Shown piece after piece: positions 30,393 to 64,000 of a stretch of 64,000 bases of DNA; positions within the stretch are counted from its first letter, which is position 1; each line of letters starts with the position of its first letter. Below the pieces are notes generated by a model. The model ran no database searches. It saw only the letters and a program-made list of their open reading frames with translations, and was not told where the DNA came from. The stretch lies in the NCBI GenBank assembly GCA_965248535.1, contig CBDFJR010000005.1, forward strand, positions 736,001 through 800,000, written 5' to 3'. This stretch comes from Phormidesmis sp. (lineage in GTDB: Bacteria > Cyanobacteriota > Cyanobacteriia > Leptolyngbyales > Leptolyngbyaceae). Both the position numbers and the translations under genes were made by a program.

Positions 30393-30397
30393 AGACA

Positions 30398-31141
30398 CTA
30401 TCGTTTTAGGTAAATCGTGCATTCTGGGTTGTTCCGAATGCGGTTGAGCTTATCGGTAAGGTCTGGTTTGGGCTGAGGTTCAGCAAACATCAGTTGAATC
30501 GCATCAGCCCGGAGGTTTCCTTCCATTGCCAAGTAACGCCAGTAGGCTTCTGAACTAGAGAACATGGCAGCAGATTTAGCAGGCTTTTCAACTACTTGAA
30601 ACGATCGCTCTAAAGACAACTCTATGGGTTTTTGACTAGGTTTGACATCTGCTTGGTTTTCATAAAAAACCTGTAGAGTATATTGTCCAACTGTTAAAGG
30701 TTGAACCTTTGACTGAGGAGACGCACCCGACCCATAGCGGATCTGCTGTTGATTAGGGTCAATATTAGCCTGCTCCCAAATGATTGATTTAGAATTTCTT
30801 TTTGTGGGTTGCAAAACCCGGACACGGGTGACAACTAGCCCAAATTTAGGTGGCTTGCTTGCGGCATCGATCACTAAATTCTTCCAAATAAACAGAGGGG
30901 TTTGACTAGATGTTTTATAAAGACTGGCATCTTCAGAGGAGGGCCAGAGCACGCAGAGAGGATCGCGAGAGCTACCAGAACCCTTAGAGCCAATCAACCA
31001 ATCCCAAAAAGAACCTGCTTGGGCGATCGCATCCCGCACTCCCACTTGATTTTTGTGAGTCGTGATCTCGATCGCGCCAATGCCCGCAGTCAATCCTAGA
31101 AAAAGCAGCCCGATCGCACACTTTTTAATCACTCGTTGCAT
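30398..31141 (-). CDS. Exported DUF928-like protein
   Basis: N-terminal hydrophobic signal, GSSRDPLCVLWP...TSSQTPLFIW pattern, and position next to a CHASE2 gene. Confidence 0.55.
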   Translation of the reverse strand: MQRVIKKCAIGLLFLGLTAGIGAIEITTHKNQVGVRDAIAQAGSFWDWLIGSKGSGSSRDPLCVLWPSSEDASLYKTSSQTPLFIWKNLVIDAASKPPKFGLVVTRVRVLQPTKRNSKSIIWEQANIDPNQQQIRYGSGASPQSKVQPLTVGQYTLQVFYENQADVKPSQKPIELSLERSFQVVEKPAKSAAMFSSSEAYWRYLAMEGNLRADAIQLMFAEPQPKPDLTDKLNRIRNNPECTIYLKR

Positions 31142-50088: not shown

Positions 50089-52545
50089 TTATCTGATACG
50101 AACTCTTTGAGAAATTTGAGTCCTTAGCTTAATCTGGTTGTACAAATCGACTTCAGGATTTGAGTGACTGATAGACACAACTAATGCATATCTTTGCATA
50201 TCGATTTCTCCTTGCTTCGCCCATTTTCGGGCACAACTGAGAACAAGATACATAGGCTGATCGAATCCTTTAGCTTGAGGAGAGATCTTAATTTTCCCTT
50301 GTTGGAGACATCCTTTTTTCCTCAAGTTGCTTCCGGGGAAAAGATCTACAGAAATTCCTTTACCAGGATGCATCTTCCTCAATTCCTCTAAAGAGATTTC
50401 TGTAAACTCCTCTGTTGGAGCCTCTTTGCTAGCCTTAACAAAAGCATTAATAATGCTCTCTTTATCAATATTTTTGAAAAGGTTGAATTCCATCGTGATT
50501 CCAAGGTAGGAGTCTCCTCGTGTTGGACGAGTGGGCGGATCAAACGAAAGTGTAATTGATAATGTTCGAGTACCCTTGGTCTTCAGATATTCATTTGGAA
50601 GCGGGGGAATCTCAAATATCTGGAAGCTTCCCACAGGAATTTGTACATCGTCTTCCAGAAGGACTACATAATTTTCAGCAGAGTATTTCGCTCGGAATAA
50701 GTCGGGCTGACCATATCCATAGATTTGTAACTGCTTCTGTAATTGCTTCTTGTCTTTGTCATTTTTTGCCTGGAAAACACGAGGAATTTCATTAGGCAAA
50801 TTAGCTGAGTTTATAATTAATGCTCTAACCAAGTTTGAGGTTGCATTTGGGAACTGAGTGAAGAGCTGGGCTGCCATATTAGCCACACGGGGAGCTGCAA
50901 AACTAGTCCCGCAATATGCACGAAACATTGATTTTGCATTATCTTTGGCAAGTGTCAGAATCGAAGCACCTGGTTCATTCGTGATTACACGGCTTCCATC
51001 AACAACTAAATCACCACCAAAATCCACAAGGTCAGGTTTAATCATGCCATCGACACCAAATCCGCTCCTTGTAAACGGAGAAGGATATCCCTGAACCCGT
51101 GCAACTACACTTCTTTTGGCATCCTCAGTGTACTGAAGACTGCCAGACCCCAGCGAAAGTGAGCCAACTGTGAGAGCAATTGCCGAAGTAGCTGGTTCAA
51201 TAATTCGTGCTTCTTCATTGAGCAAATAGTTTGGATAGTCGGTTCGCAACTGCTCCCCTGAACCTGCTTCGTAAGGCAAGTTACCTGCGGAAATAACGAA
51301 TACCAAGTTCTTATGCTGGAATTCATAGGCAATTTCATCAATTTTTGCAGCAAGACGAAACTGCTTTTGCCCATCTCTAAACGCTAATCGAGGGTCTCCC
51401 AGAGAAATATTGATGACCTTGCAGTTTCCATAATTTTGCGTGAAATATTGAATCGCATCATCCAATTGATTCTCTAGCAATGAATCTGGGTCGTACTCAT
51501 TATTATGATCAGTAACACGAGCCGAGAAAAGCCAAGCTGTTGGTTGAAATAATCGATTTTTGACGCTTTGACTGATATCTCCATAGATTGCGATTCCCGA
51601 TACGCCTGTGCCGTGACCACCTGTTTTCTCATCTCCATCATCGGAACCTCCTGTAATAAATTCTCTAGCTGAATCTGGGAAAATCTCCGCTTCTCCCAGA
51701 GCAGGAGCAATCAGAGGATGTCCTTGGCGTACCCCGGAATCAATGACTAGAATTCCACAGTTTTGCTCAGGAGGAGGATTAACTTCTGGCAAATCAGACA
51801 GTGGAATGTTGTACTCAGCAGGAGTCTCGAAGTTGGGTTTGGCTCTGCGGTCAATCTCCTTGACGAATTCCTCTTCTAGTAAGAGGTTGAGAACTTCTTG
51901 CACAATCTTAATCCTGGCTATGCAGAGGTATTCTCCTACGTAGCGATCGCTAATCCTCATGGCAGAATTATCTGACCAATTTCTCAAGACCTGATCCAGG
52001 TCATCCAGGTACTTATTCATTTCAGCCCTGTCGCCCGTGTGCCATAACTCTAAGTCAAGTGCAGCAAGCTCACTCGTCTGGATGGGTTCTAGTTCTAGTA
52101 GGCATCCAATTCGATCCGAAGGTTCTAGTGGCACCAACCCTTCAATTGCATCTAAGTAACCGTATTCATATTCAGAGTCACTGATGCCACTATAGGCTTT
52201 TAAACGTGATCGGAATTGAGTCAGTTCTTTATCCGAAGTGAAAACAACAATGGCTTTATTCGCCTTTGGTTCTTTGGCAAGTAGCGTTAATCCGAGTGGT
52301 GAGAGCGCACTCTCTTGCAACGTGCCGTCCGAACTCAGCTTAATTTTGAAGATGAGTTTTGGGTTTAGGTGAAACGGTGAAGTTTTTTGCTTGGAGCGTT
52401 GAGTCAATCCTGAAACCTGATCTAGCAGTTGTTGACCATGACTACCGCGATCACTTCTGCGAGAGCCAAAGCCGCCACCACCTCTGCTACGTCGTGGTAG
52501 CTCGATACTGGTTCTCGGCAACTCTAGGTGCTCAAACTGACTCAC
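50089..52545 (-). CDS. S8 subtilisin-like serine protease, IetS/Y4bN-like
   Basis: Triad motifs ILVIDSG, GHGTGVSG, GTSFAAP; oxyanion SAGN; no signal peptide; overlaps the upstream ATPase by 14 bp. Confidence 0.9.
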   Translation of the reverse strand: MSQFEHLELPRTSIELPRRSRGGGGFGSRRSDRGSHGQQLLDQVSGLTQRSKQKTSPFHLNPKLIFKIKLSSDGTLQESALSPLGLTLLAKEPKANKAIVVFTSDKELTQFRSRLKAYSGISDSEYEYGYLDAIEGLVPLEPSDRIGCLLELEPIQTSELAALDLELWHTGDRAEMNKYLDDLDQVLRNWSDNSAMRISDRYVGEYLCIARIKIVQEVLNLLLEEEFVKEIDRRAKPNFETPAEYNIPLSDLPEVNPPPEQNCGILVIDSGVRQGHPLIAPALGEAEIFPDSAREFITGGSDDGDEKTGGHGTGVSGIAIYGDISQSVKNRLFQPTAWLFSARVTDHNNEYDPDSLLENQLDDAIQYFTQNYGNCKVINISLGDPRLAFRDGQKQFRLAAKIDEIAYEFQHKNLVFVISAGNLPYEAGSGEQLRTDYPNYLLNEEARIIEPATSAIALTVGSLSLGSGSLQYTEDAKRSVVARVQGYPSPFTRSGFGVDGMIKPDLVDFGGDLVVDGSRVITNEPGASILTLAKDNAKSMFRAYCGTSFAAPRVANMAAQLFTQFPNATSNLVRALIINSANLPNEIPRVFQAKNDKDKKQLQKQLQIYGYGQPDLFRAKYSAENYVVLLEDDVQIPVGSFQIFEIPPLPNEYLKTKGTRTLSITLSFDPPTRPTRGDSYLGITMEFNLFKNIDKESIINAFVKASKEAPTEEFTEISLEELRKMHPGKGISVDLFPGSNLRKKGCLQQGKIKISPQAKGFDQPMYLVLSCARKWAKQGEIDMQRYALVVSISHSNPEVDLYNQIKLRTQISQRVRIR

Positions 52546-53569
52546 AATTTTCTGCCTCTACGGACTTTTCCGAATTCGCTATTATACGGTTTCTCTCTAA
52601 ATAACGCTCTACAGCAGTTTTTAAGTCAGCATGAGTAAGCTCTCGATCACCGCGAAGAATAACAGTCTTAATTGTATCAATACAAATCCGTTCAATATCT
52701 GCACCAGTTGCCTTTTCTAAATCAGCAGCAAAATTTTCAAGATTAATACTAGAATGTCGAATTCTGGAAAGATAGCGTTCCAAAAGTGCTGTTCGGAGTT
52801 TCAGGTTGGGCTTCCCAAAGAAAAGAACCTCGTCAAATCTTCTCCAAACGGCACTATCTAGCAGGGATTCATGATTCGTCGCTGCAATGAATAAGCTGTT
52901 ACTGCTTGAGGTGTCGATGAGTTGAAGTAGACTGTTGACAAGTCGCTTAACCTCACCATGTTCATTAAGCGTGTTGCGATCTCTAGCGATCGCATCAAAC
53001 TCGTCAAACAAAACAACCCACTCACCCTTTTCAACATAGTCGAAAATTTTCTTTAGATTAGTTGCTGTTTCTCCTAGATAAGATGAAAACACTGCTGTTA
53101 GATTGACATAGACTAGCGGTATTCCTAGAACCCCAGAAAGTACTTTGGCGGTCAATGTCTTGCCACAGCCCGGGGGGCCGCAAAATAAAAGTTTTGATTT
53201 GGGTCGCAACCCATAAGCTTCTAAAACTTCTTGCTTTCGGTTTTCTAACGTCACGCGCTGCAAAATTGCCAAGTTATTCTGATTTAGAACGACATCATCC
53301 CAAGTTAAATCAAATGGCTTGATATCAATGAGCGATAATCCTGTCTCTCTGTCTTTCGGAACTTCAGGATAATTCTTGTAGAGAGTATTACTGGCAGGTA
53401 GGGCTTTAGAATGACCATTTTGCAGAATTCTTTCTAAATCTTTGGCAAGTAGATTATGGTTCTTACTCTTCTCTTCTTGAATTAGTTCCATAGCCGCAGC
53501 ATAAAATCCCTCTCTCTCGTTGCGAGAGAAGCTTTGGAAAAGCTTTCTTATGATTTCTCCCCTCGCCAT
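52532..53569 (-). CDS. AAA+ ATPase, IetA-like
   Basis: GPPGCGKT, SSYLGETATNL, VLFDEFDAI, AATN...LDSAVWRRFD. Confidence 0.92.
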   Translation of the reverse strand: MARGEIIRKLFQSFSRNEREGFYAAAMELIQEEKSKNHNLLAKDLERILQNGHSKALPASNTLYKNYPEVPKDRETGLSLIDIKPFDLTWDDVVLNQNNLAILQRVTLENRKQEVLEAYGLRPKSKLLFCGPPGCGKTLTAKVLSGVLGIPLVYVNLTAVFSSYLGETATNLKKIFDYVEKGEWVVLFDEFDAIARDRNTLNEHGEVKRLVNSLLQLIDTSSSNSLFIAATNHESLLDSAVWRRFDEVLFFGKPNLKLRTALLERYLSRIRHSSINLENFAADLEKATGADIERICIDTIKTVILRGDRELTHADLKTAVERYLERNRIIANSEKSVEAENCESV

Positions 53570-53914: not shown

Positions 53915-56017
53915 ATGATAGACATTCTAGGATTTTGCATCATGTCTAATTCTGATCAAGCGTTGCGCTACCCCGCCACCCACAAAATCGAGCAGACCGA
54001 CGACTATCATGGAGTCTCGATCGCTGACCCCTATCGATGGTTAGAAGATCCTGACTCTGACGAGACAAAGGCTTGGGTCGAAGCGCAAAATCAAATCACA
54101 TTCGGATATTTGCAGCAAATTCCGGTGCGCGAAGCGATTCAGAAACGCTTAACGCAACTCTGGGATTATGAAAAATACAGCGTTCCGTTTAAAGAAGGAA
54201 ATCGCTATTTCTATTTCAAAAATGATGGATTGCAGAATCAAAGTGTTCTCTATACGCTCAATGCTTTAGACGCTGAACCGAGAGTTTTACTCGATCCTAA
54301 CAAACTCTCAGATGACGGCACTGTGGCACTCTCGGGGCTATCGATTAGCGAAGATGGAGCCTGGATGGCCTATGGATTGTCTACGTCTGGATCGGATTGG
54401 CAAGAGTGGCGAGTGCGAGAGATCGCAACGGGAAATGACACAAGCGATCGCTTGCAGTGGATCAAATTTTCTGGCGCATCGTGGACGCATGATCACAAAG
54501 GGTTCTTCTATTCTCGCTATGACGAGCCGAATGAGAAAACCAAGCTAGAAGACGCGAATTATTTTCAGAAACTTTATTATCATCGGCTTGGCACTGATCA
54601 GGCTGACGATAGTTTAATCTACGATCGCCCCGATCAAAAAGAATGGGGTTTTCAAGGTGGCGTGAGCGAAGACGGACAATATCTCATCGTTTCGGTTTGG
54701 CTGGGCACCGATCCGCGTAATCTGGTTTTCTACAAGGATTTGTCCAATCCTGATGCGCCTGTGGTCGAGCTAATTAGCGACTTTGAGGCGAGTTTTAGCT
54801 TTGTGGATCATGAGAAAAACCTGTTCTGGTTTCAGACCGATTTGGATGCGCCACGGGGCCGAGTGATCGCGATCGACGTGACAAAGCCCGATCGTCCACA
54901 GTGGCAAGAAGTCATTCCTCAATCGGCAGAAACGCTCGAAAGTGTTGGCTTGCTCAATCAGCAATTTGTCGTCTCCTATCTCAAAGATGCGCGCAGCGAG
55001 GTCAAGATTTTTGATTTGGCGGGTGGATTCATTCGAGAGATCGCCCTACCCGGAATTGGCTCGGCGGGCGGATTTGACGGTAAGCGAGACGACACCGAAA
55101 CGTTTTACAGCTTTACGAGTTTTACGACTCCGCCGACGATTTATCGCTATAACTTAGCGACGAATGAGAGTACGCTGTTTCGTCAGCCGCAGGTAGACTT
55201 TAACCCCGATGATTATGAGACTCGCCAAGTCTTCTACAGCAGCAAAGACGGAACGCAAGTGCCGATGTTTATTACCCACAAAAAGGGACTGAACCTCGAT
55301 GGCAACAATCCGACGGAGCTTTATGCCTATGGCGGCTTTGGGATTTCGCTAACGCCTAGTTTTTCAGTCGGTAATTTAGTTTGGATGGAGCTTGGCGGCG
55401 TGTTTGCTCTGCCCAATCTGCGGGGCGGTGGCGAATATGGCGAAGACTGGCATCAAGCCGGGACGAAGCTCAAAAAGCAAAATGTGTTTGACGACTTTAT
55501 CGCAGCCGGGGAATGGCTGATTGCAAACGGATATACGTCATCGTCGAAACTGGCGATCGCCGGAGGCAGCAATGGCGGTCTGCTCGTCGGCGCGTGCATG
55601 ACCCAACGCCCCGATCTGTTTGCGGCTGCTCTTCCGGCTGTCGGCGTGTTGGATATGCTGCGGTTTCACAAGTTCACGATCGGGTGGGCGTGGATGCCTG
55701 AATATGGCTCTCCAGAAGACCCAGAAGAATTCAAAGCGCTCTATGCCTACTCGCCGTTGCATCGACTCAAATCTGGCACGGCCTATCCTGCAACGCTGAT
55801 TACAACCGCCGACCACGACGATCGGGTAGTGCCTGCCCACAGTTTTAAGTTTGCAGCGGCCCTGCAAGTGGCTCATTCAGGCGATCGTCCGGTTCTGATT
55901 CGAATTGAGACAAAAGCGGGTCACGGGGCGGGCAAACCCACCGCTAAAGTGATCGAGGAGATTGTCGATAAGTGGGCATTTCTAGTGAAAACCCTGGATT
56001 TTTCACCCACTCTTTAA
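53915..56017 (+). CDS. Prolyl oligopeptidase (S9A); start probably 53942
   Basis: DPYRWLED, GGSNGG (Ser), DHDDRV (Asp), AGHGAG (His). Confidence 0.96.
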   Translation: MIDILGFCIMSNSDQALRYPATHKIEQTDDYHGVSIADPYRWLEDPDSDETKAWVEAQNQITFGYLQQIPVREAIQKRLTQLWDYEKYSVPFKEGNRYFYFKNDGLQNQSVLYTLNALDAEPRVLLDPNKLSDDGTVALSGLSISEDGAWMAYGLSTSGSDWQEWRVREIATGNDTSDRLQWIKFSGASWTHDHKGFFYSRYDEPNEKTKLEDANYFQKLYYHRLGTDQADDSLIYDRPDQKEWGFQGGVSEDGQYLIVSVWLGTDPRNLVFYKDLSNPDAPVVELISDFEASFSFVDHEKNLFWFQTDLDAPRGRVIAIDVTKPDRPQWQEVIPQSAETLESVGLLNQQFVVSYLKDARSEVKIFDLAGGFIREIALPGIGSAGGFDGKRDDTETFYSFTSFTTPPTIYRYNLATNESTLFRQPQVDFNPDDYETRQVFYSSKDGTQVPMFITHKKGLNLDGNNPTELYAYGGFGISLTPSFSVGNLVWMELGGVFALPNLRGGGEYGEDWHQAGTKLKKQNVFDDFIAAGEWLIANGYTSSSKLAIAGGSNGGLLVGACMTQRPDLFAAALPAVGVLDMLRFHKFTIGWAWMPEYGSPEDPEEFKALYAYSPLHRLKSGTAYPATLITTADHDDRVVPAHSFKFAAALQVAHSGDRPVLIRIETKAGHGAGKPTAKVIEEIVDKWAFLVKTLDFSPTL

Positions 56018-56108
56018 GTCAGACTCGCCTTCAGCATTGCTCTATACAGTTTTTACTTTCTGTATCGGTAAAGATGTATCGTGTCCTAGAGTCAAATCAC
56101 CATAAACT

Positions 56109-56135
56109 TAGCTTCCGTGAGGAGGCTATTTTTTT
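56109..56135 (+). terminator. Intrinsic terminator downstream of the prolyl oligopeptidase gene
   Basis: TAGCTTCC-GTGA-GGAGGCTA hairpin followed by T7. Confidence 0.75.
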
Positions 56136-56151
56136 CGCATAAAAGCCCCTA

Positions 56152-56339
56152 AACATAACGTCAGTCCGACGAGTTTCTCCGCTGCGTTCTCAGCAGCTTC
56201 TGCCCTCTAAATTCTCCCTGAATGGAAGACCTTAAGCCAAGACTAAATTTCTAGTTCAAAGTTCCCGAATTGGGGACTTTAGGGAGCTTCCCGGATTCAC
56301 GATCGCATCCAACTACTTCTGTCAAACGAGGTTTATGTT
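56152..56339. repeat. Decayed palindromic REP/MITE-like element
   Basis: Ends AACATAA / TTATGTT; internal decayed inverted pair CCCTCTAAATTCTCC...GACCTT and AAAGTTCCCGAATTGGGGACTTTAGGGAG. Confidence 0.45.
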
Positions 56340-56341
56340 AA

Positions 56342-56429
56342 GCATAACGTTGCCCATCACCCGCCGCAGATCAACTTTGTAGTATACCGATCAACTCTCG
56401 GCGGTCGGTGTGCAGGGGCGTTGTTATGC
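56342..56429 (-). other. Integron attC site 1 (88 bp)
   Basis: Minus strand: R'' GCATAAC, 5-nt spacer, L'' CCCTGCAC ... L' GTGATGGG, R' GTTATGC, with a long internal palindrome. Confidence 0.85.
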
Positions 56430-56496
56430 AGCGATAAATAACCATGATGTTTCTCCATTTCATAAAACCTGGAAGAGATTCATAACCATCGGCGCA

Positions 56497-56829
56497 TTAT
56501 GATAAAGCAAGCAGCGATAAGTTCTCATCTTCATAAAATAATTTGATCGCGTCAAAATTCTGACGCAGCAAATTTTCAACCTGTGATGTCGAACAATTTC
56601 CAAGACGAAGCCAAATAACTTTCGGTGGATTTCCAGATACTAAGCTCAGGTCGTGCATATCCGCATCTTTCGAGACAATCATCAAATTCTTGTCTTTTGC
56701 ATAATCCCAAACGATTGGATCGATTGTTGCCTTCATGCCCACGTCTCGAACGTGAAGCGAATTTGGGAAAAGATCACTTAAACGATTTGGCAACTTGGGC
56801 GACAAGTTTTCATCAAAAAGCAATTTCAT
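56497..56829 (-). CDS. DUF5615 PIN-like toxin (VapC45-like)
   Basis: MKLLFDENLS...HVRDVG...IVSKDAD...PPKVIWLRLGNCST; ATGA overlap with the upstream gene. Confidence 0.9.
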   Translation of the reverse strand: MKLLFDENLSPKLPNRLSDLFPNSLHVRDVGMKATIDPIVWDYAKDKNLMIVSKDADMHDLSLVSGNPPKVIWLRLGNCSTSQVENLLRQNFDAIKLFYEDENLSLLALS

Positions 56830-57056
56830 GCGGATAGTGGAGCACTCATAAACCGACGCTCACGGTCGGCAGCATAAGCAATACAGGCTTTCAAATCTTC
56901 TCGCGTTAGATCAGGAAAATCGTCGAGAATTTCTGCTTCGGTCATCTCGGAAGCTAGGTACTCAAGCACTTCATAAACCGTAATTCGCAAGCCACGTACA
57001 CAAGGCTTACCACCGCGCTTATCGGGTTCGATCGTGATGTAATTTCGGTAGTTCAT
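56826..57056 (-). CDS. DUF433 antitoxin (VapB45-like)
   Basis: GGKPCVRGLRITVYEVL...EILDDFPDLTREDLKACIAYAA. Confidence 0.92.
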   Translation of the reverse strand: MNYRNYITIEPDKRGGKPCVRGLRITVYEVLEYLASEMTEAEILDDFPDLTREDLKACIAYAADRERRFMSAPLSA

Positions 57057-57115
57057 ATTAAAAGCATCTGAATGTTAATCAAATTGTAGCTTTGCAGTGG
57101 CGACTGATTCGCCCT

Positions 57116-57501
57116 TCACTTTAGATGATTTAGTTTCCACTCTACCCACTCTGTATAAGTTTTAACCTTTGCGGGCGCATCCAAAACCTCAAAGTGCGAC
57201 TTCGGATCAGTCAGCAAGTCCAAAACCAATTCCTCATACTCCTCTCGTGTAATCTCAAAAGGTTTCCACGAGCAACCTCCACTCATCCCAGCATCATATT
57301 GAGCTTTTCCGTCTGGAAAAGCCCATTAGGGAAAAACTCATTGGGCACACCCTGCTTTAACAAGTAACTTAATACATGAAAAGGTGGAATAAATTTATTT
57401 AACACGTAGGGCATCGCAAGTAGCAAATCCTTCAGCGTCCCTCTCGTCCAAATCCCGCCCGCGCAATGCATCGCATAAAGTTTAAAACGCAACTCTCTCA
57501 C
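57116..57501 (-). pseudogene. Cassette-borne hypothetical gene with a 1-bp frameshift near 57320
   Basis: ORF 57283..57501 continues in another frame as FPDGKAQYDAGMSGGCSWKPFEITREEYEELV...KLNHLK* if one T is added to GGGCTTTTCC. Confidence 0.6.
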
Positions 57502-57557
57502 CGAGCGATCGCCTCACCATTTACCTTCAAAAAACTTCCCAAACTACAATCGAAGCG

Positions 57558-58343
57558 GCATAACGACTAAGATAAGCGGCGGCAGATAACCTTTGCATCC
57601 CCACAAAGATCTCGCGCCCGTCCGCTTCATCGACTTGTGTACGCCCAGCATGGGTGTGAACTAATGGGGTGAAAGTCCCCTGTCGGAGAACCAACGTCCA
57701 AATGATCCCAAAAGATCCGAGTGACGACAACGACTAGCTTAAGGTAAGGGCGTTTCCGCGAGGAAGGGTCTGAAGGAAGCCAGCGGCAAATCTGCGAGCT
57801 GACGGACAGAAACGTCATAGAAGGCTGAGATTCCTGTGGCAAGTGAGCACAACATCATGAAGCCTTTTGGTTCAGGGAACACAGTAAATGACGCAGTTGT
57901 GCAGAGACAGTTCACGTTCTTATCTGGGGAGATCTGCTCAAAGGGCGGTCTGAGGGTCTACGGGAGTCTGATTGAGGTCTAGCGGGAAACGGCTAGGGAG
58001 CCACGGAACCCTAAGGACATTCAGGCAGCGTGAGTCATGGCAACAGGACTCATGATTGAGCAGAAGTCAGCAGAGGTCATAGTAGCCAAACACTCACCGT
58101 AATGGGTGAGACAGGGTGAAGGGCTGAACCTTAGAAAGCAGGGAGGAGTTGCAAAGCTCGACTGGGCGATGAACCCGAACGGGGGAGCTATTTTGTCGGC
58201 GCTTAACTGCACAACCAGCCCTGGATATTCAGTTCTATTGAACTGGCTTGTCTAAAACTTTTCTGGGGACGCGCCCCGTGCGGAGCCGCACGCGGGGTGC
58301 CGTGGGGACTGGGGGAGAAAATCCCCTGGTTACCCGATTAGCC
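57558..58343 (-). other. Integron attC site 2, interrupted by the group II intron (57558-57638 plus 58339-58343)
   Basis: With the intron removed, the minus strand reads R'' GGCTAAC-AAGTC-L'' GATGAAG...L' CTTATC-TTAGTC-R' GTTATGC. Confidence 0.88.
57639..58338 (+). mobile_element. Class C (IIC-attC) group II intron lacking an RT ORF, 700 nt
   Basis: 5' GTACGCCCAGCATGGG; IIC landmarks TCTGAAGGAAGC, TTCTTATCTGGGGAGATCTG, GAAGTCAGCAGAGGTCATAGTA; short domain V with CGC triad and AC bulge (58271-58300); domain VI ending ACCCGAT; inserted at TTGT/T. Confidence 0.92.
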
Positions 58344-58366
58344 TGCGTTTGCACTCACGCCGAGAA

Positions 58367-58732
58367 CTATAACTCATCAATCGTTACCAACCCACCTTCT
58401 GTGAACTGGATTACAAGCTCATGCTCGTCTAGCAAAGCAGTTCCAATTAGAGGTCGCCGTCCTGTAGCAAACACACGAGCTTCTCGCTCCTCTCCGTTCC
58501 AAAGAATGATCGCTTTGTGCACTGGCAATATAACTCGGCTGTTATCTGCCAAATTCGCACGCATATCATGTTTGAAAGGAAGATTCAGTAAAGCGACTGC
58601 TTCTGGCGGGAGACAAAGCTCATCTGTAAATCCTGTGTCTACTACAAACTCAACTGGGAAGTCAGCGCGATTGGGAATCCGAAACGGGATGGTAATAATG
58701 GCGTGTCCGTCAGTAACAATACCCGAAATCAC
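58367..58732 (-). CDS. Clan AA (retropepsin-like) aspartic protease, AF_0612-like
   Basis: FVVDTGFTDELCLP catalytic motif, LADNS flap, PLIGTALL; GTG start overlaps the upstream stop. Confidence 0.88.
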   Translation of the reverse strand: MISGIVTDGHAIITIPFRIPNRADFPVEFVVDTGFTDELCLPPEAVALLNLPFKHDMRANLADNSRVILPVHKAIILWNGEEREARVFATGRRPLIGTALLDEHELVIQFTEGGLVTIDEL

Positions 58733-59004
58733 TTAACCACACGCTCCATGACACCACCACTAAAAGCCGCACCAACGTTGTACCCGATTTTGATCCCGAA
58801 GAGTCGGGCATTGGGGTGTTTCTCGCTCAAGTAGTCAGCGGCGCGTAAGCTATTTTCATCAACCTTGTAATCACCTGTCTCAATGTCAATGATGACGATC
58901 TTCCCGATGTTTTCTTCCACTTCCACCTCTTGGCGAATCCTGTCTTCGTATAGTTGCTCTGCACGTTGAGCAACTTCTTCGCGACTTAAAAGGATGGCTT
59001 GCAT
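58729..59004 (-). CDS. Small partner protein of the aspartic protease (91 aa, DUF5678-like)
   Basis: MQAILLSREEVAQRAEQLYE...GKIVIIDIETGDY...HPNARLFGIKIGY; the start at 59004 avoids overlap with the upstream gene. Confidence 0.75.
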   Translation of the reverse strand: MQAILLSREEVAQRAEQLYEDRIRQEVEVEENIGKIVIIDIETGDYKVDENSLRAADYLSEKHPNARLFGIKIGYNVGAAFSGGVMERVVK

Positions 59005-59083
59005 ATTCTGGCTCCCGATCGCTGTGTGGCTGTTGAAGAACCCCTTCATTATATCTTGTAAACGAAGCCTACAATGCCGACCA

Positions 59084-59620
59084 TTATTGCTTGATCCGAG
59101 CATACCAGCCGTAGGTTGTTCTCTGAGCCTTAGCACCTGTCCCTGAAAATCCTTCAAAAGAACCAGCCAAAGTGTATACCTTACCTGAACCCTCTCCATT
59201 TGAGAACATGTAGCCTGTATGAAATTGGAGAGTAGACGGATCTTTAGAATCAATGATTCTTATGAACGTGATCTTCTGGGCATCTTCATCCCAAAAACCA
59301 TTGATCGGATTACCCATGACCGATCCTTGCACATTCCCGTTCACATCAATAGCCGAAATTTTTAGCGTCCCTTCATATCCATTCCCATTAAATTGCCAGT
59401 CTCCAATTAGCAGGGATACTGAAGCATTGCTGGAATTGCTGGAATTGCTAGAAGTTATAGGTAGCTGAGTGGATGGTGTAGGCGAAGCAGACTTATTGGA
59501 AGCAGAAAGTTTATCCCAGTTCGCAAACAGAGCTACAGCCACTGTGCCAATTAAACCAACCACAGCCAAAATAATCTGAGTGCGAGAATCTAACCCTTTG
59601 TTTTCATTATTATCTGTCAT
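59084..59620 (-). CDS. Hypothetical membrane-anchored protein with a beta-rich domain
   Basis: N-terminal TM helix, Ser/Pro linker, then LIGDWQFNGNGYEGTLKI...GFWDEDAQKITFIR...YGWYA. Confidence 0.7.
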   Translation of the reverse strand: MTDNNENKGLDSRTQIILAVVGLIGTVAVALFANWDKLSASNKSASPTPSTQLPITSSNSSNSSNASVSLLIGDWQFNGNGYEGTLKISAIDVNGNVQGSVMGNPINGFWDEDAQKITFIRIIDSKDPSTLQFHTGYMFSNGEGSGKVYTLAGSFEGFSGTGAKAQRTTYGWYARIKQ

Positions 59621-59704
59621 AGTGGTATACCACTGAAACAAACTGATAGCGTCTTGTTACAAGTTGCACTACGATCGCTTGGCTCTGACCTCTGAACATT
59701 CCCA

Positions 59705-61564
59705 TCAAGGACAGGGAGTAGCTTTTGGAGGCGAATAAAGCGGCACCCAGTTATCATTCGTAGCTACTACTGCGTTATATCGGCGTGTGTATAATCCGCC
59801 ATCCTTGATTACAACAAGACGTGGTCTAAACCCCGTAGCACCAGACCGAGTCATAATTTCAATTTGTGTGCTTCCTTTTAGCTCAGGGTCTGAATCTAAT
59901 CTATTCCATGCTCCCCATGTCGAACCTGGTATCGCACTCACTTTCTGGCGTTGATAAATGGAAGTTACACTGTTTGAGTCCTTAGCCAAAAGATAAACAT
60001 CCATTTGTCCGTTAGGATTAATTCCGGCTGCAATATCAAGCAGGGTCAATGTGGGTAGCCCTTCACTGAAAGATACCCAACCAGACCATTGATTGGAACT
60101 TGGACTCGAAATCTCCCAACTTGTTTTCACGTCGTTACCTGCTATTAGAAAAATTTGCTGAAAACCACCAGTACTTGATGCAGCGATCGCACGAGAACCA
60201 GAGAATGTTCCAAGAAGTTTCTCTTGTTCCCAATTTGCATTCCACGTATTCAGCTTTCGACGTGTGCGAATTTGTCCATCTGTATGAACAGTATAGAGCT
60301 GCATTGCTGTTGAGCCTGCGGACTGCGCTTCAATGTCAACTACGCTTCTCGACATCGCACTATCTGGAAACCACGTCTGCCAATCAGCCCAAACCCCAGG
60401 ACTAGTCTCAAATTTATTCCAAATCTGAGAAGCCTTTGAGGTTTGATTTTCTGCTTGAGCAAATATCCAACGTCTTCCATCAAGGGTTGTTGCAGAGGTA
60501 AGACGACCAAATAATAGGAGAGATGCGAACAATTTGGAATCACGGAAGTCGCGCCATTGATCAGCGGAGCGATAACCATCTGTACTATCAAGACTTGTCC
60601 AAGCTACTGAATTGAAAAAGACATCACCACTGGTTACCCCAAGCAATTGTCCATTCCCATGTGTAGCTGTGAATCCTTTGGCGCGAACTGGTGCAAAAGC
60701 CCATGCATTTGTTCCGATTTCTCGGTTTGCGTTTTCTTCAGTCCATGTGGAGGCATTACCGCTACCACCGCCACCCACCGTGGACATAATAGCTGGATTT
60801 GAAAAAGCATTGACGATTGTTGGTCCTCCAGATGCACCGCCTTCATATGAGCAATCACTAAGAACTACGCCAAGTCCCTCTTGACGCTGCCCACTAGCTG
60901 TTGAGCAAACTGCATCCTTTCTCAACTTACAAGTGTTGTAATGTCCTAATCCGTTACTTCCAAGAAAATCACCCGAATATCCAAAAACAGTTACGTCAAT
61001 TCCTTCAGAAGGAATGGGATTAGGGGTTGAATTAGAAGCAATCGTAGGCCAGTTTAGAAAGGTCGCTGGAAAATCAGGAACACCTGAGTTACTCGGCGGA
61101 TTCCCCCGACTGTATGTACTTGGATCAAGTTCGACGATAGTCCAATCCGCTCCAGGAACATAGGTACCACCGTCATTAATCTTGTTATCGTGACCAGTGC
61201 CAAAGACTATACGCTTTCCTCGGATTGAGGGACGGTAAGAATAGTTGGTGGCATTGGGGGTACCTACGAAAGCCGGTCGAAAAATGATATCGCCAGGGTT
61301 GACATTACGAGCAGCAAAACAATGCCTTGCTGTGATGATGTGGTTGGGTGCAAGATGAGTTGCGGTACAGTGTCCTCCACCTGGAAGGTCAAGTAGTCCA
61401 ATTGCCCAAAGGTTTCTATTGGTTCTGAAGAATGCGTCGTCCATGCCAACCCGTGGATCACTTGAGCCATACCATGTCGCAGAAGCAGTGCTAGAGACAA
61501 AGAGCGAACTGAGGATGAAGGCAAAGAGCAATACCTTAATTCGGTCATACTTCTTGGGCGACAT
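59705..61564 (-). CDS. Secreted trypsin-like serine protease with a C-terminal Trp-rich, lectin-like propeller region
   Basis: Signal peptide; CTATHL...ITARHC (His), DWTIVEL (Asp), GASGGP (Ser); C-terminal repeats ending WADW, WSGW, WGAW. Confidence 0.82.
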   Translation of the reverse strand: MSPKKYDRIKVLLFAFILSSLFVSSTASATWYGSSDPRVGMDDAFFRTNRNLWAIGLLDLPGGGHCTATHLAPNHIITARHCFAARNVNPGDIIFRPAFVGTPNATNYSYRPSIRGKRIVFGTGHDNKINDGGTYVPGADWTIVELDPSTYSRGNPPSNSGVPDFPATFLNWPTIASNSTPNPIPSEGIDVTVFGYSGDFLGSNGLGHYNTCKLRKDAVCSTASGQRQEGLGVVLSDCSYEGGASGGPTIVNAFSNPAIMSTVGGGGSGNASTWTEENANREIGTNAWAFAPVRAKGFTATHGNGQLLGVTSGDVFFNSVAWTSLDSTDGYRSADQWRDFRDSKLFASLLLFGRLTSATTLDGRRWIFAQAENQTSKASQIWNKFETSPGVWADWQTWFPDSAMSRSVVDIEAQSAGSTAMQLYTVHTDGQIRTRRKLNTWNANWEQEKLLGTFSGSRAIAASSTGGFQQIFLIAGNDVKTSWEISSPSSNQWSGWVSFSEGLPTLTLLDIAAGINPNGQMDVYLLAKDSNSVTSIYQRQKVSAIPGSTWGAWNRLDSDPELKGSTQIEIMTRSGATGFRPRLVVIKDGGLYTRRYNAVVATNDNWVPLYSPPKATPCP

Positions 61565-61635
61565 AGTTCCCTATTTCCTTGCTGAACACCAACAGACAGT
61601 CTTTCATCTACCGCCCCAACCCAGATGACGAAGCA

Positions 61636-61749
61636 GGCTAACGATTGAGTTGAACCGCACCAAATCAATCAAGCAACACCAACTTTAGTTGGTAGTGCGG
61701 TTAACCTTACGACTATTTGTAGCGTGTCGGTTCCAACGAAATGTTCTAC
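61636..61749 (-). other. Integron attC site 3 (114 bp)
   Basis: Minus strand: R'' GTAGAAC-ATTTC-L'' GTTGGAACCG ... L' CGGTTCAAC-TCAATC-R' GTTAGCC; L'' carries the characteristic extra G. Confidence 0.8.
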
Positions 61750-61815
61750 GGAACTGGGTGGATGTAGTGTTCCCAATGGGTAACATTTATATCCAGTTCT
61801 CGTGGAACTATTGAT

Positions 61816-61883
61816 TATACGGAAAATTTCCGTATATCTCCCCGATTTAGGCAGATACCCGGAAACTTTCTGCATATCTCCCC
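61816..61883. promoter_or_regulatory. Operator-like palindrome and direct repeat
   Basis: TATACGGAAA-A-TTTCCGTATA palindrome; 23-mer repeated at 61821 and 61861 with 20/23 identity. Confidence 0.45.
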
Positions 61884-62045
61884 TCACTTTTCATTAGGTA
61901 TTCTGATTCTATGAGATCATATTCATTATTTCGTTGAGGAATTATAAACCTTTAGGGACGATCGCGCCCCTCTCTTTCCCCAAAACCCGATCGCTCCTCC
62001 CAAAAAATTCAGCATTCCAAAAAACAAAAAACTCTAGTACAATAC

Positions 62046-62281
62046 ACCGCAGTGATGGAGTTGTGCCCCGAAGTCTGATGGACAAGATCAGAACTCCGAG
62101 GACTTCCATCCCTAAGTTAGTGCACTGATAACTCAGGAGGCGTTCATGATTGTACACCGTCGGCTTTGCTATGGGATCTTGAAAGGCTGGAATCAAGATC
62201 CTGCATACAGATTTCACCCCAACACAATGTCTGAGAGATCCGTGTTTTTGTCCTCTTTGAACTAATCGAGAGGACAAAAAC
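62046..62281 (+). ncRNA. Putative structured RNA or 5' leader, possibly 6S-like
   Basis: TACAAT box at 62038-62043, then hairpins at 62054-62110, 62170-62207 and 62244-62281; the last stem hides the GAGGA RBS of the next ORF. Confidence 0.5.
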
Positions 62282-62282
62282 T

Positions 62283-62654
62283 ATGGCAGTTAGGACGATC
62301 GTTCCTAGCTCGATTTCGTTTACGGTTGAGTTAGGTTGCTCAATCGAAAAGCGTTATCGAGTCAGTGTCACTTTGGATTTACAAGAGCGTTATCTCTTCA
62401 TGCCGTCTGGCATTCTCGTGAATGTTAGCGACAGCATTGAAGACTTCACCTCGCAACTGAGTGAGATTGCTTCTAATCAACTGGCATTTCTGAAGTGGGA
62501 TGGCACGAGTGATTTGACGACAGAGTATCAAGTTGTTCGAGTGTTGCCCGGTTATCAAGTTGGACGTTCTCTCGTGAAGTTCAACATTGTTCTGGGTGAG
62601 GGTTCACTGATTCAAGTAGAGGAGTTGCACAACGAAACCAACATTCAACTCTAG
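62283..62654 (+). CDS. Hypothetical protein
   Basis: 123 aa, ATG with GAGGA RBS; no motif recognised. Confidence 0.65.
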   Translation: MAVRTIVPSSISFTVELGCSIEKRYRVSVTLDLQERYLFMPSGILVNVSDSIEDFTSQLSEIASNQLAFLKWDGTSDLTTEYQVVRVLPGYQVGRSLVKFNIVLGEGSLIQVEELHNETNIQL

Positions 62655-62949
62655 AACAGTTGGGGTTAGAGATCCGTCGATGATCCCTTTGGGAGCCTGC
62701 AATGTGATCTGTTGGGTTATAGCGCTTGCCCCCAAAGCGGATTCATCCTCATTACTGCTTTGCTCTTTGTTTAAAGTTGGAAGGTTGCCGTTCAGCTTGG
62801 TCATTCATCGGCCCAAGCGTGGCAAAGACATATATTTAGAAGCTTGGAAAACAGACGGTGAATCTATCCTCGAACCGAGTACACTACAAACTGTTTGATG
62901 GGTGCAGAAGTTGGGCTTGATCAAATCGCTACTTTCATCTCTAGGTAGA

Positions 62950-64000
62950 ATGGACGCGCAAAAAACATTACGACAAAAAGGCAGGAAACCCCTGCTGCGG
63001 CTAACTAGCCTGCTAATCTTTGGAGGCATCTTTCTCGCCTTACCCGCCCGATCGCAGATCATTCCTCAAGCCACCGCCGCCGCCAGAGACACTCAGCGCC
63101 AACAGCAGGTCAACCAAACGCGCCCCGATCGCTACGATCTCAGCCGCCACCCCGTCAACGATGCCAACGAACGCTATTGGCGAAACTTGCTCTGGTCAAC
63201 CGCCATCACAGAACCGCAGCTTGCGTCAGTCGATGGAGCAATCGCGCAAATTCTCTCGCTGACGGCTCGCCGGGGTCTCTCTAACGCCCAAGCCCGAACG
63301 CTGGAAATGGCGATGCAGGTTGGCACTCAGCTTTATCTCAGCAACCCAACTCAATATGACGGCGTAAAGCAACAGTTTTTGCAAACCATCGATCGTAGCC
63401 CTGATGCAGAATGGGTGGCGATGGCGGTGTCGGCACTAGTGCAAGGAGGTGCCGAGACTGAACTGCGATCGCAGTGGCTGACCCTGATTCAGCAACGGTT
63501 TCCTCAATGGCGCGACGATCCGGCTCTGTTGACAACGCTGCGGACGATCGAGAGTCTCGATCGCCCCCATCTCACTCCACCCTTAAAAGATCTGTTGACT
63601 TGGACGATTGCCCCTAACCAGCTTCAGATGTATGTGATTTGTCGCCCCGATCGTGGACTTCTCTGTCAAGCGATTTTAAAAGACCGTCGAGGGCAGTTTG
63701 TTCGTCAAGACGGTGAATTGTGGTCAGTGCCCTTGCTGACCCGATCGCTGCATGGTTTATCGAGCGTCTTTACGCGGGGGCAAACTCCGCAGGGAGTCTA
63801 CCGCATTGAGGGCAGCGTTCCGCAGCCGGATACGGAGTTTTTTAGAGCCTATGGCACCTTTCCTCTGGTCAAGCTATTTACGCCCTTTGAGCCGGGGGTA
63901 AAAGCCTTTTTGCCCAACCATCCGGGACAAATTGCTGGGCTGTCTGCCTATCAGTCGCTGCTGCCACCATCTTGGCGCAACGAGTTTGCAGTCCAGCAGA
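62950..64000 (+). CDS. Exported hypothetical protein, truncated by the window edge (absent from the ORF track)
   Basis: Open from ATG 62950 to the end (350 codons): MDAQKTLRQKGRKPLLRLTSLLIFGGIFLALPARSQ signal peptide, later TRGQTPQGVYRIEG. Confidence 0.8.
   Translation, partial: MDAQKTLRQKGRKPLLRLTSLLIFGGIFLALPARSQIIPQATAAARDTQRQQQVNQTRPDRYDLSRHPVNDANERYWRNLLWSTAITEPQLASVDGAIAQILSLTARRGLSNAQARTLEMAMQVGTQLYLSNPTQYDGVKQQFLQTIDRSPDAEWVAMAVSALVQGGAETELRSQWLTLIQQRFPQWRDDPALLTTLRTIESLDRPHLTPPLKDLLTWTIAPNQLQMYVICRPDRGLLCQAILKDRRGQFVRQDGELWSVPLLTRSLHGLSSVFTRGQTPQGVYRIEGSVPQPDTEFFRAYGTFPLVKLFTPFEPGVKAFLPNHPGQIAGLSAYQSLLPPSWRNEFAVQQ

Follow-up and report, generated by a model that had tools for sequence, protein, structure and literature searches.

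Clusters of attC sites lacking an integron integrase (CALINs) are recognized by a cluster of two or more attC sites (4-kb limit) with no integron integrase within 4 kb of it. Each attC is an imperfect inverted repeat of ~50–150 nt, the ends of which, R'' (RYYYAAC) and R' (GTTRRRY), form the R box. Cyanobacteria are listed among the phyla carrying integrons (PMC4889954). The attC sites can in turn host group IIC-attC introns, a group defined by the phylogeny of the intron protein (IEP) (PMC3001079), which target TTGT/T in the bottom-strand R'' box, CALINs included (PMC7923331; PMC3001079).

In the 64,000-nt stretch of Phormidesmis sp. DNA analyzed here (the window), positions 56342–61749 very probably form a genuine integron gene-cassette array of a cyanobacterial chromosome, with three attC sites, two cassettes, and no adjoining integrase, that is to say, a CALIN. 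Compared with the CALINs described in 2016 and with IntegronFinder 2.0, the array is likewise of small size and carries cassettes with no relation to resistance genes; it differs in that (i) one attC is interrupted by an intron; (ii) one cassette holds four genes; and (iii) the head side was checked over 2.25 kb. The two-cassette array is real yet fairly ordinary. Only one feature is out of the ordinary: the middle attC contains a small group II intron that encodes no protein. The novelty rests more with this intron than with the CALIN.

The sedentary chromosomal arrays of Gammaproteobacteria (a 23-site array on the MAG contig CAVPPC010000005.1, locus L042, and the intI-linked loci L080 and L081) share the attC architecture, and the L-box core AGCGGCGGC...CCG-T-CCGC with its bulged T is common to these arrays and attC2. 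By contrast, the gammaproteobacterial arrays are dense, with spacings mostly of about 0.4–1.6 kb (two of ~2.2 kb) and near-identical attC sites, and the second base to bulge out is G in them but C in the cyanobacterial attC family. An intact intI is present in L080, L081, and L011, whereas none was seen beside the window array.

Three attC sites delimit two cassettes

The sites and cassettes are as follows (the minus strand is the top, coding strand).

56342–56429, minus (top strand; the recombinogenic bottom strand is plus): attC1, 88 nt, terminal attC of cassette B
57558–57638, minus: major part of attC2; on the plus strand, R' complement GCATAAC, L', loop, and L'' to ...TTGT
58339–58343, minus: remainder of attC2, TAGCC, completing the R'' box GT/TAGCC on the plus strand
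61636–61749, minus: attC3, 114 nt, array head
56348–57563, minus: cassette B, 1216 bp, from the attC2 R' TT to the attC1 R' G (sequence and model alignments)
57564–61641, minus: cassette A, 4078 bp with the intron and 3378 bp without it, four genes

The R' box of attC1 (GTTATGC) is the reverse complement of 56342–56348, with the crossover between 56348 and 56347, and that of attC3 (GTTAGCC) is the reverse complement of 61636–61642. Without the intron, attC2 (57558–57638 plus 58339–58343) measures 86 nt. The gaps between the three sites are 1128 nt (56430–57557) and 3292 nt (58344–61635), both within the 4-kb limit for a CALIN.

We built two covariance models from foreign attC sites, neither of which is the IntegronFinder attC model: R1 from 34 attC of non-cyanobacterial (proteobacterial or Verrucomicrobiota) arrays and R2 from 111 cyanobacterial attC, with none from the window in either. 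When all 64,000 bases were searched with R1 on both strands, with filters off and a rough E calibration, attC2 ranked first (57558–57644, 32.5 bits, E 7.9e-6), a score that is partly circular because the training loci were fetched with a pattern derived from attC2. It was followed by attC1 (20.9 bits, E 0.0068) and attC3 (19.3 bits, E 0.018), both over the extents listed above, which do not match that pattern and the significance of which is only modest under this cross-phylum model; the fourth match had an E of 1.2. The R2 search of both strands of the window gave 67.0 bits (E 3.3e-16) for attC2, again a partly circular score, 53.1 bits (E 2.6e-12) for attC1, and 40.6 bits (E 8.5e-9) for attC3, the next match having 13.8 bits (E 0.28). 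Each model thus places the three sites in its top three with a clear gap to the fourth, and the sites lie exactly at the positions proposed in the initial annotation. Neither model found a further attC between attC2 and attC3, and an Rfam search of 56000–62400 returned no match to an attC-type family.

In the model alignments, each of the three sites has an AAC...GTT R box and a paired L stem, as the proposed R''–L''–L'–R' architecture required, with the weakest R box in attC3. The seven R-box pairs are complete in attC1 and include one non-standard pair in attC2 (scored against the first bases of the intron), whereas three of the seven are non-standard in attC3, which also has an unusually long variable loop of 62 nt. 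Two bulged bases, T then C, lie on the 3' arm of the plus strand in every site; compared with attC2, attC1 has its L stem flipped from G-C to C-G with the bulged T kept, and this T is invariant across the 34 non-cyanobacterial attC. Among the 111 cyanobacterial attC, 85.6% of 2437 cells are paired, compared with 28–38% when the partner is slid, and double changes occur in 18 of the 22 pairs; none of 500 shuffles reached the observed value. The non-cyanobacterial set is 90.7% paired, compared with 26–45% with the partner slid. The model structure is therefore supported by covariation. Folding energy is a poor discriminator alone (z = −1.4 to −3.3 for the sites against shuffles).

The orientation of the sites is also observed directly. 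They had been assigned to the minus strand, which holds for the top strand; folding and recombination would take place on the plus strand, where all three model matches lie. All genes listed within 56430–61635 lie on the minus strand, opposite to the attC model strand, in agreement with the co-orientation noted initially. The cassettes have a GC content of 0.43–0.49 against 0.50–0.57 in the flanking core genes, and so are AT-richer, as claimed. The cyanobacterial host is borne out by psaA/psaB at 3–2641 of the window and by 58 occurrences of the HIP1 octamer GCGATCGC, where about 1 is expected.

Related cyanobacterial loci with at least two attC carry all of them on one strand in 27 of 31 cases, with a median spacing of 1542 bp, and 11 of the 68 spacings in related arrays exceed 3 kb. 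Over 84 nt, attC1 shares 89% identity with an attC in an intI-linked array of Myxacorys californica (L019, 11314–11396). Beside this attC family, the TIGR02249 integron-integrase cut-off of 265 bits was passed in L019 (385), L008 (337), L080 (429), L081 (459), and L011 (407). The nine IntI-linked loci all show one geometry: the attC model and the intI coding sequence share a strand, and the best IntI match has the array on its 5' side.

These data bear on whether the three hairpins are integron sites at all, or species-specific palindromic repeats or terminators that attracted a group IIC intron. Group IIC introns are described as also inserting after terminators (PMC4424553), and generic AAC..GTT hairpins are common, with 28 in the window against 9–15 in five shuffles. 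We nevertheless consider this explanation very improbable: the three sites match models from arrays that adjoin integron integrases in three phyla; both the unpaired spacer and the bulged bases specific to attC are retained; no T-run follows the stem, and none of the three is among the eight listed terminator-like sites; and 27 of 31 related loci repeat the same-strand arrangement at cassette spacing. The intron described below is an independent witness that attC2 is an integron site.

We propose that each of these integron sites would fold as single-stranded DNA on the bottom strand, here plus, pairing AAC with GTT in the R box, leaving the spacer unpaired, and forming an L stem with two bases extrahelical. 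An IntI provided in trans would make its cut at the R' box and could remove cassettes or change their order. Recombination competence, and the dependence on such a trans-acting IntI, are inferred.

A protein-less group II intron interrupts attC2

57639–58338, plus: ORF-less group II intron, group IIC-attC-like, 700 nt, in the bottom-strand R'' box of attC2 at TTGT/T

That the middle site is split by an intron was claimed initially and was confirmed directly, in identity and in position, by Rfam matches to RF02001 (127.8 bits), RF01998 (63.7 bits), and RF00029 (43.5 bits), all three of which pass their gathering scores. The intron is antisense to the cassette genes, and its junctions read ...GACTTGT/GTACGCC...CCCGAT/TAGCC. 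All five cyanobacterial intron junctions seen have (T/G)TGT at the 5' side, and all five continue with TAG after the 3' end. The traits that we used for group IIC are a CGC triad in domain V, a short IBS1, and a target after a stem-loop; the window intron reads CGC at the triad, in place of the AGC of the model, and we classed it with this group. Between the window intron and the copies in Kovacikia minuta, 13 of 217 predicted pairs are changed on both sides and still paired.

By sequence, the intron has relatives among the group IIC-attC introns that class 1 integrons carry. We compared it with the two ltrA-bearing group IIC-attC introns (S.ma.I2 relatives) of a class 1 integron on the Pseudomonas putida plasmid pVIM_Pse-KSS14. 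The introns start with the same 12 nt (GTACGCCCAGCA), and the identity is 68% at intron positions 1–495 and 79% at positions 634–700. The plasmid introns lie at ...GAATTGT/, sharing the ...TTGT/ insertion point in the bottom strand of the attC R'' box, and are likewise opposite to the cassettes. They differ from the window intron in that (i) they carry a ~1.33-kb ORF in domain IV, where the window intron has ~138 nt and no IEP; and (ii) the host of the window intron is a cyanobacterium. The known cyanobacterial examples of group II introns that lack an ORF are chloroplast-like IIB introns, whereas the window intron belongs to the IIC-attC type, with attC sites as its target.

The longest stop-free stretch in the intron is 76 aa, and it encodes no IEP. 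A tblastn search of the window with the IEP of the plasmid introns gave no match, and no related IEP was seen in the window or in 66 kb of K. minuta pA. Formal membership of group IIC-attC is decided by an RT/maturase in the monophyletic class C-attC lineage, which this intron lacks; it would work like an IIC-attC intron and is not placeable by the defining protein. Two K. minuta copies agree at 696 of 698 positions and lie in different attC sites, which suggests that the intron moves without its own protein and needs a trans-acting one, a reverse transcriptase/maturase presumably encoded elsewhere. The ORF-less group II introns acting in trans that are described by Zimmerly & Semper (2015, PMC4424553) likewise lack an IEP and occur in several copies; according to the same source, ORF-less introns are nearly always found in genomes with related IEP-encoding introns.

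The intron would have reverse-spliced into the bottom strand of attC2 at TTGT/T. It would thereby part the R'' box from the remaining hairpin and disable attC2 as a folded substrate, so that cassettes A and B would be locked as one 5.3-kb unit, which only attC3 × attC1 recombination could excise.

No integrase in the window, and possible origins of the array

As initially reported for the head of the array (61750–64000), no integrase was found there or elsewhere in the window by domain and tblastn searches. None of 48 ORFs contains a Phage_integrase domain, and the best tblastn E values were 0.18 for IntI1 against the window and 1.0 for cyanobacterial IntI queries against 55000–64000. The strongest IntI match in the whole window (E 0.068, 13775–13891, with the L052 query) lies inside a 2868-aa repeat-protein gene (13295–21901). 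The window ends 2251 nt past attC3, with 1.75 kb of the head-side 4-kb zone beyond it, where an intI could still lie. The locus differs from a complete integron in having neither intI nor an intI remnant in 61750–64000, and no promoter-like site was found on the minus strand near the array head.

61806–61883, no strand assigned: palindromic unit present twice, as TATACGGAAAATTTCCGTATA and as a degenerate copy, family D2 of the repeat search

These palindromes lie 57–134 nt outside attC3, on the head side. Similar clusters adjoin the arrays in L044, L046, and L074 and occur 90–190 nt upstream of an intI pseudogene in L052. They may be an operator, a promoter, or a platform remnant, and possibly belong to the element.

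Two routes could explain why the array is without an integrase, whether by loss or from the outset. It is quite possible, if short of probable, that an integron was once complete here and that the array is its end, now detached or decayed, the intI having been deleted or rearranged away, with the palindromes as regulatory or attI remains of the platform. All five cyanobacterial intI homologues beside this attC family are disrupted, by in-frame stops (L019 and L008), multiple lesions (L007), an internal deletion (L052), or truncation (L061), although in L019 and L008, both of them MAG loci, the single stop could reflect an assembly error; pseudogenes are reported to make up about a third of intI genes (Nemergut 2008, PMC2426708). 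With attC3 as its head, the array implies a former upstream neighbor, either one or more further cassettes or what remained of a cassette, yet no trace of intI was detected on the right side of the array. The palindrome cluster lies head-side of the array in L044 and L046, as in the window, and just upstream of the intI pseudogene in L052, but it was not found in the intI-proximal regions of L019, L008, L007, and L061 at the thresholds used, and in L074 it directly follows an attC R' end, as if cassette-borne.

Rather unlikely, in our assessment, is that an integrase from another locus assembled the array at a secondary genomic site other than attI, as has been put forward for small CALINs and for elements with one attC. 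IntI-driven cassette insertion at GWT sites is described by Loot et al. (bioRxiv 10.1101/2022.09.11.507474), who give 1362 of 2961 CALINs as holding just two cassettes. The array is flanked by a core gene that has a terminator of its own (56109–56135) and by other plus-strand genes; no IS element or intI remnant was found between the core flanks 56018 and 62900, and the sole transposase-like gene seen in the window (40877–42091) is 14 kb from the array. An array begun in this way should, however, start with a cassette body and not with an attC such as attC3.

Genes and expression of the cassettes

56497–56829, minus: DUF5615 PIN-like protein, 110 aa, putative toxin (Pfam PF18480, E 2.6e-35)
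56826–57056, minus: DUF433 protein, 76 aa, putative antitoxin (Pfam PF04255, E 5.8e-25)
57116–57501, minus: two short overlapping ORFs, 56 aa and 72 aa (ORF list)
58367–58732, minus: clan AA aspartic protease (DTGF type), 121 aa (NCBIfam TIGR03698, 84 bits, cut-off 57.35)
58729–59016, minus: 95-aa partner ORF, overlapping the protease start (ORF list)
59084–59641, minus: 185-aa putative membrane protein with a hydrophobic N-terminal segment (translation)
59705–61564, minus: secreted trypsin-like (S1) serine protease, 619 aa, with a long C-terminal extension

The toxin-antitoxin pair that had been recognized from the sequence alone is upheld by the domain matches in cassette B: the DUF433 gene overlaps the start of the DUF5615 gene by 4 nt, and the pair has the gene layout and domains of a type II system, the toxin and antitoxin roles being putative. 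Its DNA is 89–90% identical to pairs in the Nostoc edaphicum plasmid pNe_5 (L003) and the MAG locus L010, and the pair probably stabilizes the array. The 56-aa and 72-aa ORFs matched nothing in Pfam, NCBIfam, or PADLOC and may represent a single gene with a frameshift. As a Pc promoter is lacking nearby, expression would have to come from cassette-internal promoters; promoter-like sites number 4 against a mean of 8.5 in shuffles, which is not above chance.

The four genes of cassette A are atypical of a cassette. The 95-aa partner ORF has no match in Pfam, NCBIfam, PADLOC, or PDB, and the 185-aa protein matches no family in Pfam, NCBIfam, or PADLOC. The 619-aa protease matches Pfam Trypsin_2 at an E of 9.6e-5, which is below the cut-off, and the PDB serine protease 7uxg at an E of 1.8e-4; in the Atlas search, the seven listed clusters score 0.90–0.97 and bear PF00089 Trypsin on 100% of their members. 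Some of the matching clusters bear tachylectin or beta-propeller domains, and the C-terminal extension is possibly a propeller or lectin-like domain.

Three attC sites, two cassettes, and an interrupted middle site

In the region 56342–61749, three attC sites belonging to an integrase-linked family bound two cassettes; the middle site is interrupted by an attC-targeting intron, and no integrase gene is visible in the window.

attC sites of the window
56342–56429: attC1, plus-strand sequence GCATAAC...GTTATGC
57558–57638 and 58339–58343: attC2, plus-strand sequence GCATAAC...CGACTTGT, a 700-nt insertion, then TAGCC
61636–61749: attC3, at the array head, plus-strand sequence GGCTAAC...GTTCTAC

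The initial annotation had proposed these three sites from the sequence. They are precisely the top three matches in an unfiltered search of both strands of the window with R1, a covariance model built from 34 non-redundant sites of non-cyanobacterial arrays (E-values of 7.9e-6, 0.0068, and 0.018; fourth match, 1.2), and a covariance-model check of the kind that the annotation had called for gave 67.0, 53.1, and 40.6 bits at the three sites with R2, a model built from 111 cyanobacterial attCs, none of them in the window, the attC2 score being partly circular because the training loci were retrieved by a pattern from attC2, which is absent from attC1 and attC3. In the R1 structure, a spacer of 3 nt separates a 7-bp R box from a 15-bp L stem, and T and G are the bulged bases on the 3′ arm; this structure is satisfied in 90.7% of the cells of the 34-site alignment, compared with 26–45% when the partners are slid. 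Among the matches listed, R1 detected 111 sites in 75 cyanobacterial and unassigned loci. In the alignment of these sites, which leans towards the model because it was fitted to R1, pairing holds in 85.6% of 2437 cells (28–38% when slid) and 18 of 22 pairs have double-sided changes, values that none of 500 shuffles reached. The next-best R2 match in the window (40035–40095, minus strand; 13.8 bits, E = 0.28) has perfect CTCTAAC...GTTAGAG ends and lies within a radical-SAM gene (38937–40523); it is probably due to chance. Neither model found an additional attC between attC2 and attC3.

Five sites, compared in a profile, share a plus-strand design of RYYTAACG, 10 nt, GCGGCGG...CCG-T-CCGC, and then ...TTGT/TAGNC. 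The attC1 stem is flipped relative to this design (CCGCCGC / GGCGG-T-CGG) and retains the bulged T. An inner hairpin (61648–61707) considered as the attC3 L stem was ruled out by the model alignment. General searches discriminated poorly: (i) a scan for AAC...GTT hairpins combined with DNA folding was non-specific, returning 28 in the window compared with 9–15 in five block shuffles, and failed on attC2 and attC3; (ii) the folding energies of the three sites were 1.4–3.3 standard deviations below those of shuffles (z −1.4 to −3.3), equally on both strands; and (iii) no attC-type Rfam family matched in the window or in 56000–62400 at E-values up to 1, the only matches in the region being three intron families. 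A 12-nt direct repeat (TAAACATAACGT / TAAGCATAACGT) occurs at 56150–56161 and 56339–56350. Its first copy, 190 nt past attC1, receives no score from R1 or R2; it may be the remaining R′ end of a fourth attC that has decayed.

Relatives of the attC family and their integrases

A plasmid megablast search returned partial matches in 3 records, including plasmid pA of Kovacikia minuta, which has the intron plus similar hairpins, and a Nostoc plasmid that has half of attC1; the search also matched the toxin–antitoxin pair of cassette B in Nostoc edaphicum. A scan of 185,579 species genomes for an attC2 pattern of 20 bases yielded at least 127 stretches, many of them from filamentous cyanobacteria and several from proteobacterial arrays, one with 23 matches in 17.7 kb. 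This attC family, with an L-box core common to gammaproteobacterial arrays, is thus widespread in filamentous cyanobacteria, and its arrays there are loose. In the related cyanobacterial loci among the matches listed, the median distance between attCs is 1542 bp, with 11 of 68 spacings above 3 kb, so the window values, 1216 and 4078 bp, fall within range; all attCs share one strand in 27 of the 31 such loci with at least 2 sites.

In tblastn searches with IntI1 from a class 1 integron, nine loci among the matches listed have homologues beside attCs of this family. Five of these pass the integron-integrase cut-off (NCBIfam TIGR02249, 265 bits): the cyanobacterial loci L019 (385) and L008 (337), and the comparison loci L080 (429), L081 (459), and L011 (407). 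All nine have intI encoded on the attC model strand, with the array 5′ of the best IntI match; in comparison locus L022, a further, shorter IntI-like fragment lies on the opposite side. According to this geometry, the plus strand of the window is the bottom strand, and an intI gene on the plus strand, right of 61749, would be expected. Among the matches listed, intI is intact in 3 of 3 proteobacterial loci and its homologue is disrupted in 5 of 5 cyanobacterial loci.

intI homologues of cyanobacterial loci
L019 7883–8845: single in-frame stop; metagenome-assembled genome (MAG)
L008 2869–3780: single in-frame stop; MAG
L007 10921–11638: many lesions
L052 18473–19105: internal deletion; pseudogene
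L061 7484–8004: truncation

The stops in L019 and L008 could be sequencing errors because both loci are MAGs.

The array head and the origin of the array

As the initial annotation stated, no integrase was found at the array head: the best IntI1 match in the window has an E-value of 0.18, the head side being covered for 2251 nt after attC3 relative to the 4-kb criterion of IntegronFinder. Cyanobacterial IntI queries gave a best tblastn E-value of 1.0 in 55000–64000, none of 48 window ORFs contains a Phage_integrase domain, and the head-side ORFs at 62283–62654 and 62902–63999 matched no family. The strongest IntI match in the whole window (13775–13891, E = 0.068, L052 query) lies inside the unrelated gene of a 2868-aa repeat protein. 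A perfect 13-bp inverted repeat (GTTTTTGTCCTCT / AGAGGACAAAAAC, 62244–62281) ends 2 nt ahead of the ATG of a 123-aa ORF (62283).

Just outside the head lie palindromic repeats of the unit TATACGGAAA(N0-2)TTTCCGTATA, which are clustered and often have a terminal TATAAT-like hexamer.

Palindrome clusters
window 61806–61883
comparison locus L044 5295–5520
comparison locus L046 8991–9101
cyanobacterial intI locus L052 18262–18345
comparison locus L074 7083–7206

In 1.35 Mb of compared sequence, such clusters occur in only these 5 sources, in every case no more than about 2 kb from an attC, and on the array head side in 4 of the 5. The L052 palindromes lie 90–190 nt upstream of the intI pseudogene. 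The palindromes may act as an operator or promoter, either for the platform or for cassettes. An attC at the array head together with these repeats just outside it slightly favours loss or separation of the integrase as the origin of the array. Assembly at a secondary site, a route proposed for small CALINs (attC clusters without an integrase) in PMC4889954 and bioRxiv 10.1101/2022.09.11.507474, is slightly less favoured.

The host is cyanobacterial as assigned, with psaA/psaB at 3–2641; the window contains 58 copies of the HIP1 octamer GCGATCGC, compared with about 1 predicted from base composition.

Cassette contents

Cassettes and their genes
56348–57563, minus strand: cassette B, DUF433 and DUF5615/PIN-like genes plus two short ORFs
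57564–61641, minus strand: cassette A, four genes
cassette A: clan AA aspartic protease (TIGR03698, 84 bits) and an overlapping 95-aa partner
cassette A: 185-aa protein, hydrophobic at its N-terminus
cassette A: 619-aa trypsin-like protease

The proposed co-orientation of the enclosed genes and their AT-richness were both borne out: all ORFs of note between the sites lie on the minus strand, and the GC content of the region is 0.43–0.49 compared with 0.50–0.57 in the flanking prolyl-oligopeptidase gene (53915–56017) and the gene starting at 62902. The proposed toxin–antitoxin (TA) pair corresponds to the DUF433 and DUF5615/PIN-like genes of cassette B, which overlap by 4 nt. The pair recurs at 89–90% DNA identity in comparison locus L010 and in plasmid pNe_5 of Nostoc edaphicum, which has a partial attC of this family upstream of the pair and, downstream, a stretch resembling, by eye, the attC1 5′ arm. 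The 56-, 72-, 95-, and 185-aa ORFs have no match in PADLOC, NCBIfam, Pfam, or PDB.

The TA pair would stabilise the array, and the cassettes may be expressed from internal promoters; a promoter/terminator scan detected no internal promoters, with fewer promoter-like sites than shuffled sequence contains, and no promoter directed outward in the intron. An IntI acting in trans could still join attC3 with attC1. The attC2 site would not be foldable because its R″ sits 700 nt from the remainder of the hairpin.

An ORF-less intron in attC2

The insertion in attC2 (57639–58338, plus strand) is a group II intron, beginning with GTACGCCCAGCA at 57639 and ending with ...CCCGAT at 58338.

Group II intron domains
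57752–57918, plus strand: Rfam, 127.8 bits
58029–58124, plus strand: Rfam, 63.7 bits
58269–58338, plus strand: Rfam, 43.5 bits

Domain V has CGC in place of the AGC of the model. Blastn matched 365 plasmid records, mostly enterobacterial. In the Pseudomonas putida plasmid pVIM_Pse-KSS14, two ltrA-bearing introns of this type lie between the cassettes of a class 1 integron, in the opposite orientation to them. The window intron shares with these the first 12 nt and the junction (...GAATTGT| in pVIM). By contrast, the approximately 1.33-kb ORF of the pVIM-type introns is replaced by about 138 nt, and the longest open stretch in the window intron is 76 aa; tblastn with the intron-encoded protein (IEP) of pVIM returned no match, either in the window or across 66 kb of K. 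minuta DNA. According to PMC3001079 and PMC7923331, group IIC-attC introns target TTGT/T within the R″ box of the bottom strand and run against the direction of cassette transcription, CALINs included.

Related copies are located on the 1.2-Mb K. minuta plasmid pA replicon, where blastn revealed 6 intron places. The window intron and the K. minuta copies are identical in 607 of 701 columns, and 13 of 217 predicted pairs are changed on both sides and still paired. Two pA copies (L001 12923–13620 and L005 20088–20785) are equal at 696 of 698 positions, and their host attCs at 47 of 82; near-identical introns in such dissimilar attCs indicate, as judged from sequence, recent movement of the ORF-less form. 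Two further pA copies are truncated (L001 12001–12094 and 22810–23329), and more intron 5′ ends occur in attCs of L095 (a Leptolyngbyales MAG) and L130 (Alkalinema pantanalense).

ORF-less bacterial group II introns are described, in PMC4424553, as rare and reliant on related IEPs in trans. We found no description of an ORF-less IIC-attC intron in full-text searches of an open-access library or in the accessible text of PMC4424553, PMC8876359, and PMC8919778. The chances appear about even that the intron is a non-autonomous, MITE-like group IIC-attC derivative that spreads specifically among cyanobacterial attCs through a reverse transcriptase supplied in trans. The integrase genes next to cyanobacterial arrays of this lineage are mostly dead; if the proposal holds, hairpin splitting by the intron would lead to fusion of neighbouring cassettes and to frozen arrays. 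Leon and Roy reportedly proposed a recombination substrate for making new cassettes, which the intron could, on the same proposal, supply.

Integrons beyond Proteobacteria are little studied. The array itself is of a known kind, since CALINs are common (279 in 2016, PMC4889954; 2961 in 2022), cyanobacterial integrons are on record (PMC4889954; PMC2426708), and introns inside CALIN attCs have been reported (PMC7923331). The less expected part is the ORF-less IIC-attC-type intron, a relative of the introns of clinical class 1 integrons that apparently moves among cyanobacterial attC sites. The locus offers a natural system for asking whether integrase-less arrays are still mobile, how attC-targeting introns recognise folded DNA without a protein of their own, and whether such introns make or fuse cassettes. 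For annotation, about 5.4 kb that appear in the ORF track as unrelated small genes constitute a single mobile-element structure.

Other features of the window

Immediately left of the prolyl-oligopeptidase gene, in a low-GC stretch (0.40–0.45), the minus-strand genes at 50089–53569 encode a 345-aa AAA+ ATPase matching PADLOC IetA (299 bits) and an 818-aa S8 subtilase matching IetS (398 bits), which by these sequence matches is an IetAS anti-phage defence pair. A TnpB/OrfB_IS605-type gene (40877–42091, plus strand) has HTH_OrfB_IS605, OrfB_IS605, and Cas12f1-like TNB domains. Very large surface or secreted proteins are encoded within 13295–21901, including the 2868-aa protein with 13 Calx-beta repeats and FG-GAP repeats, and within 25842–33701, including a 1516-aa protein with TPS and CHAT domains adjoined by CHAT/CHASE2 genes.
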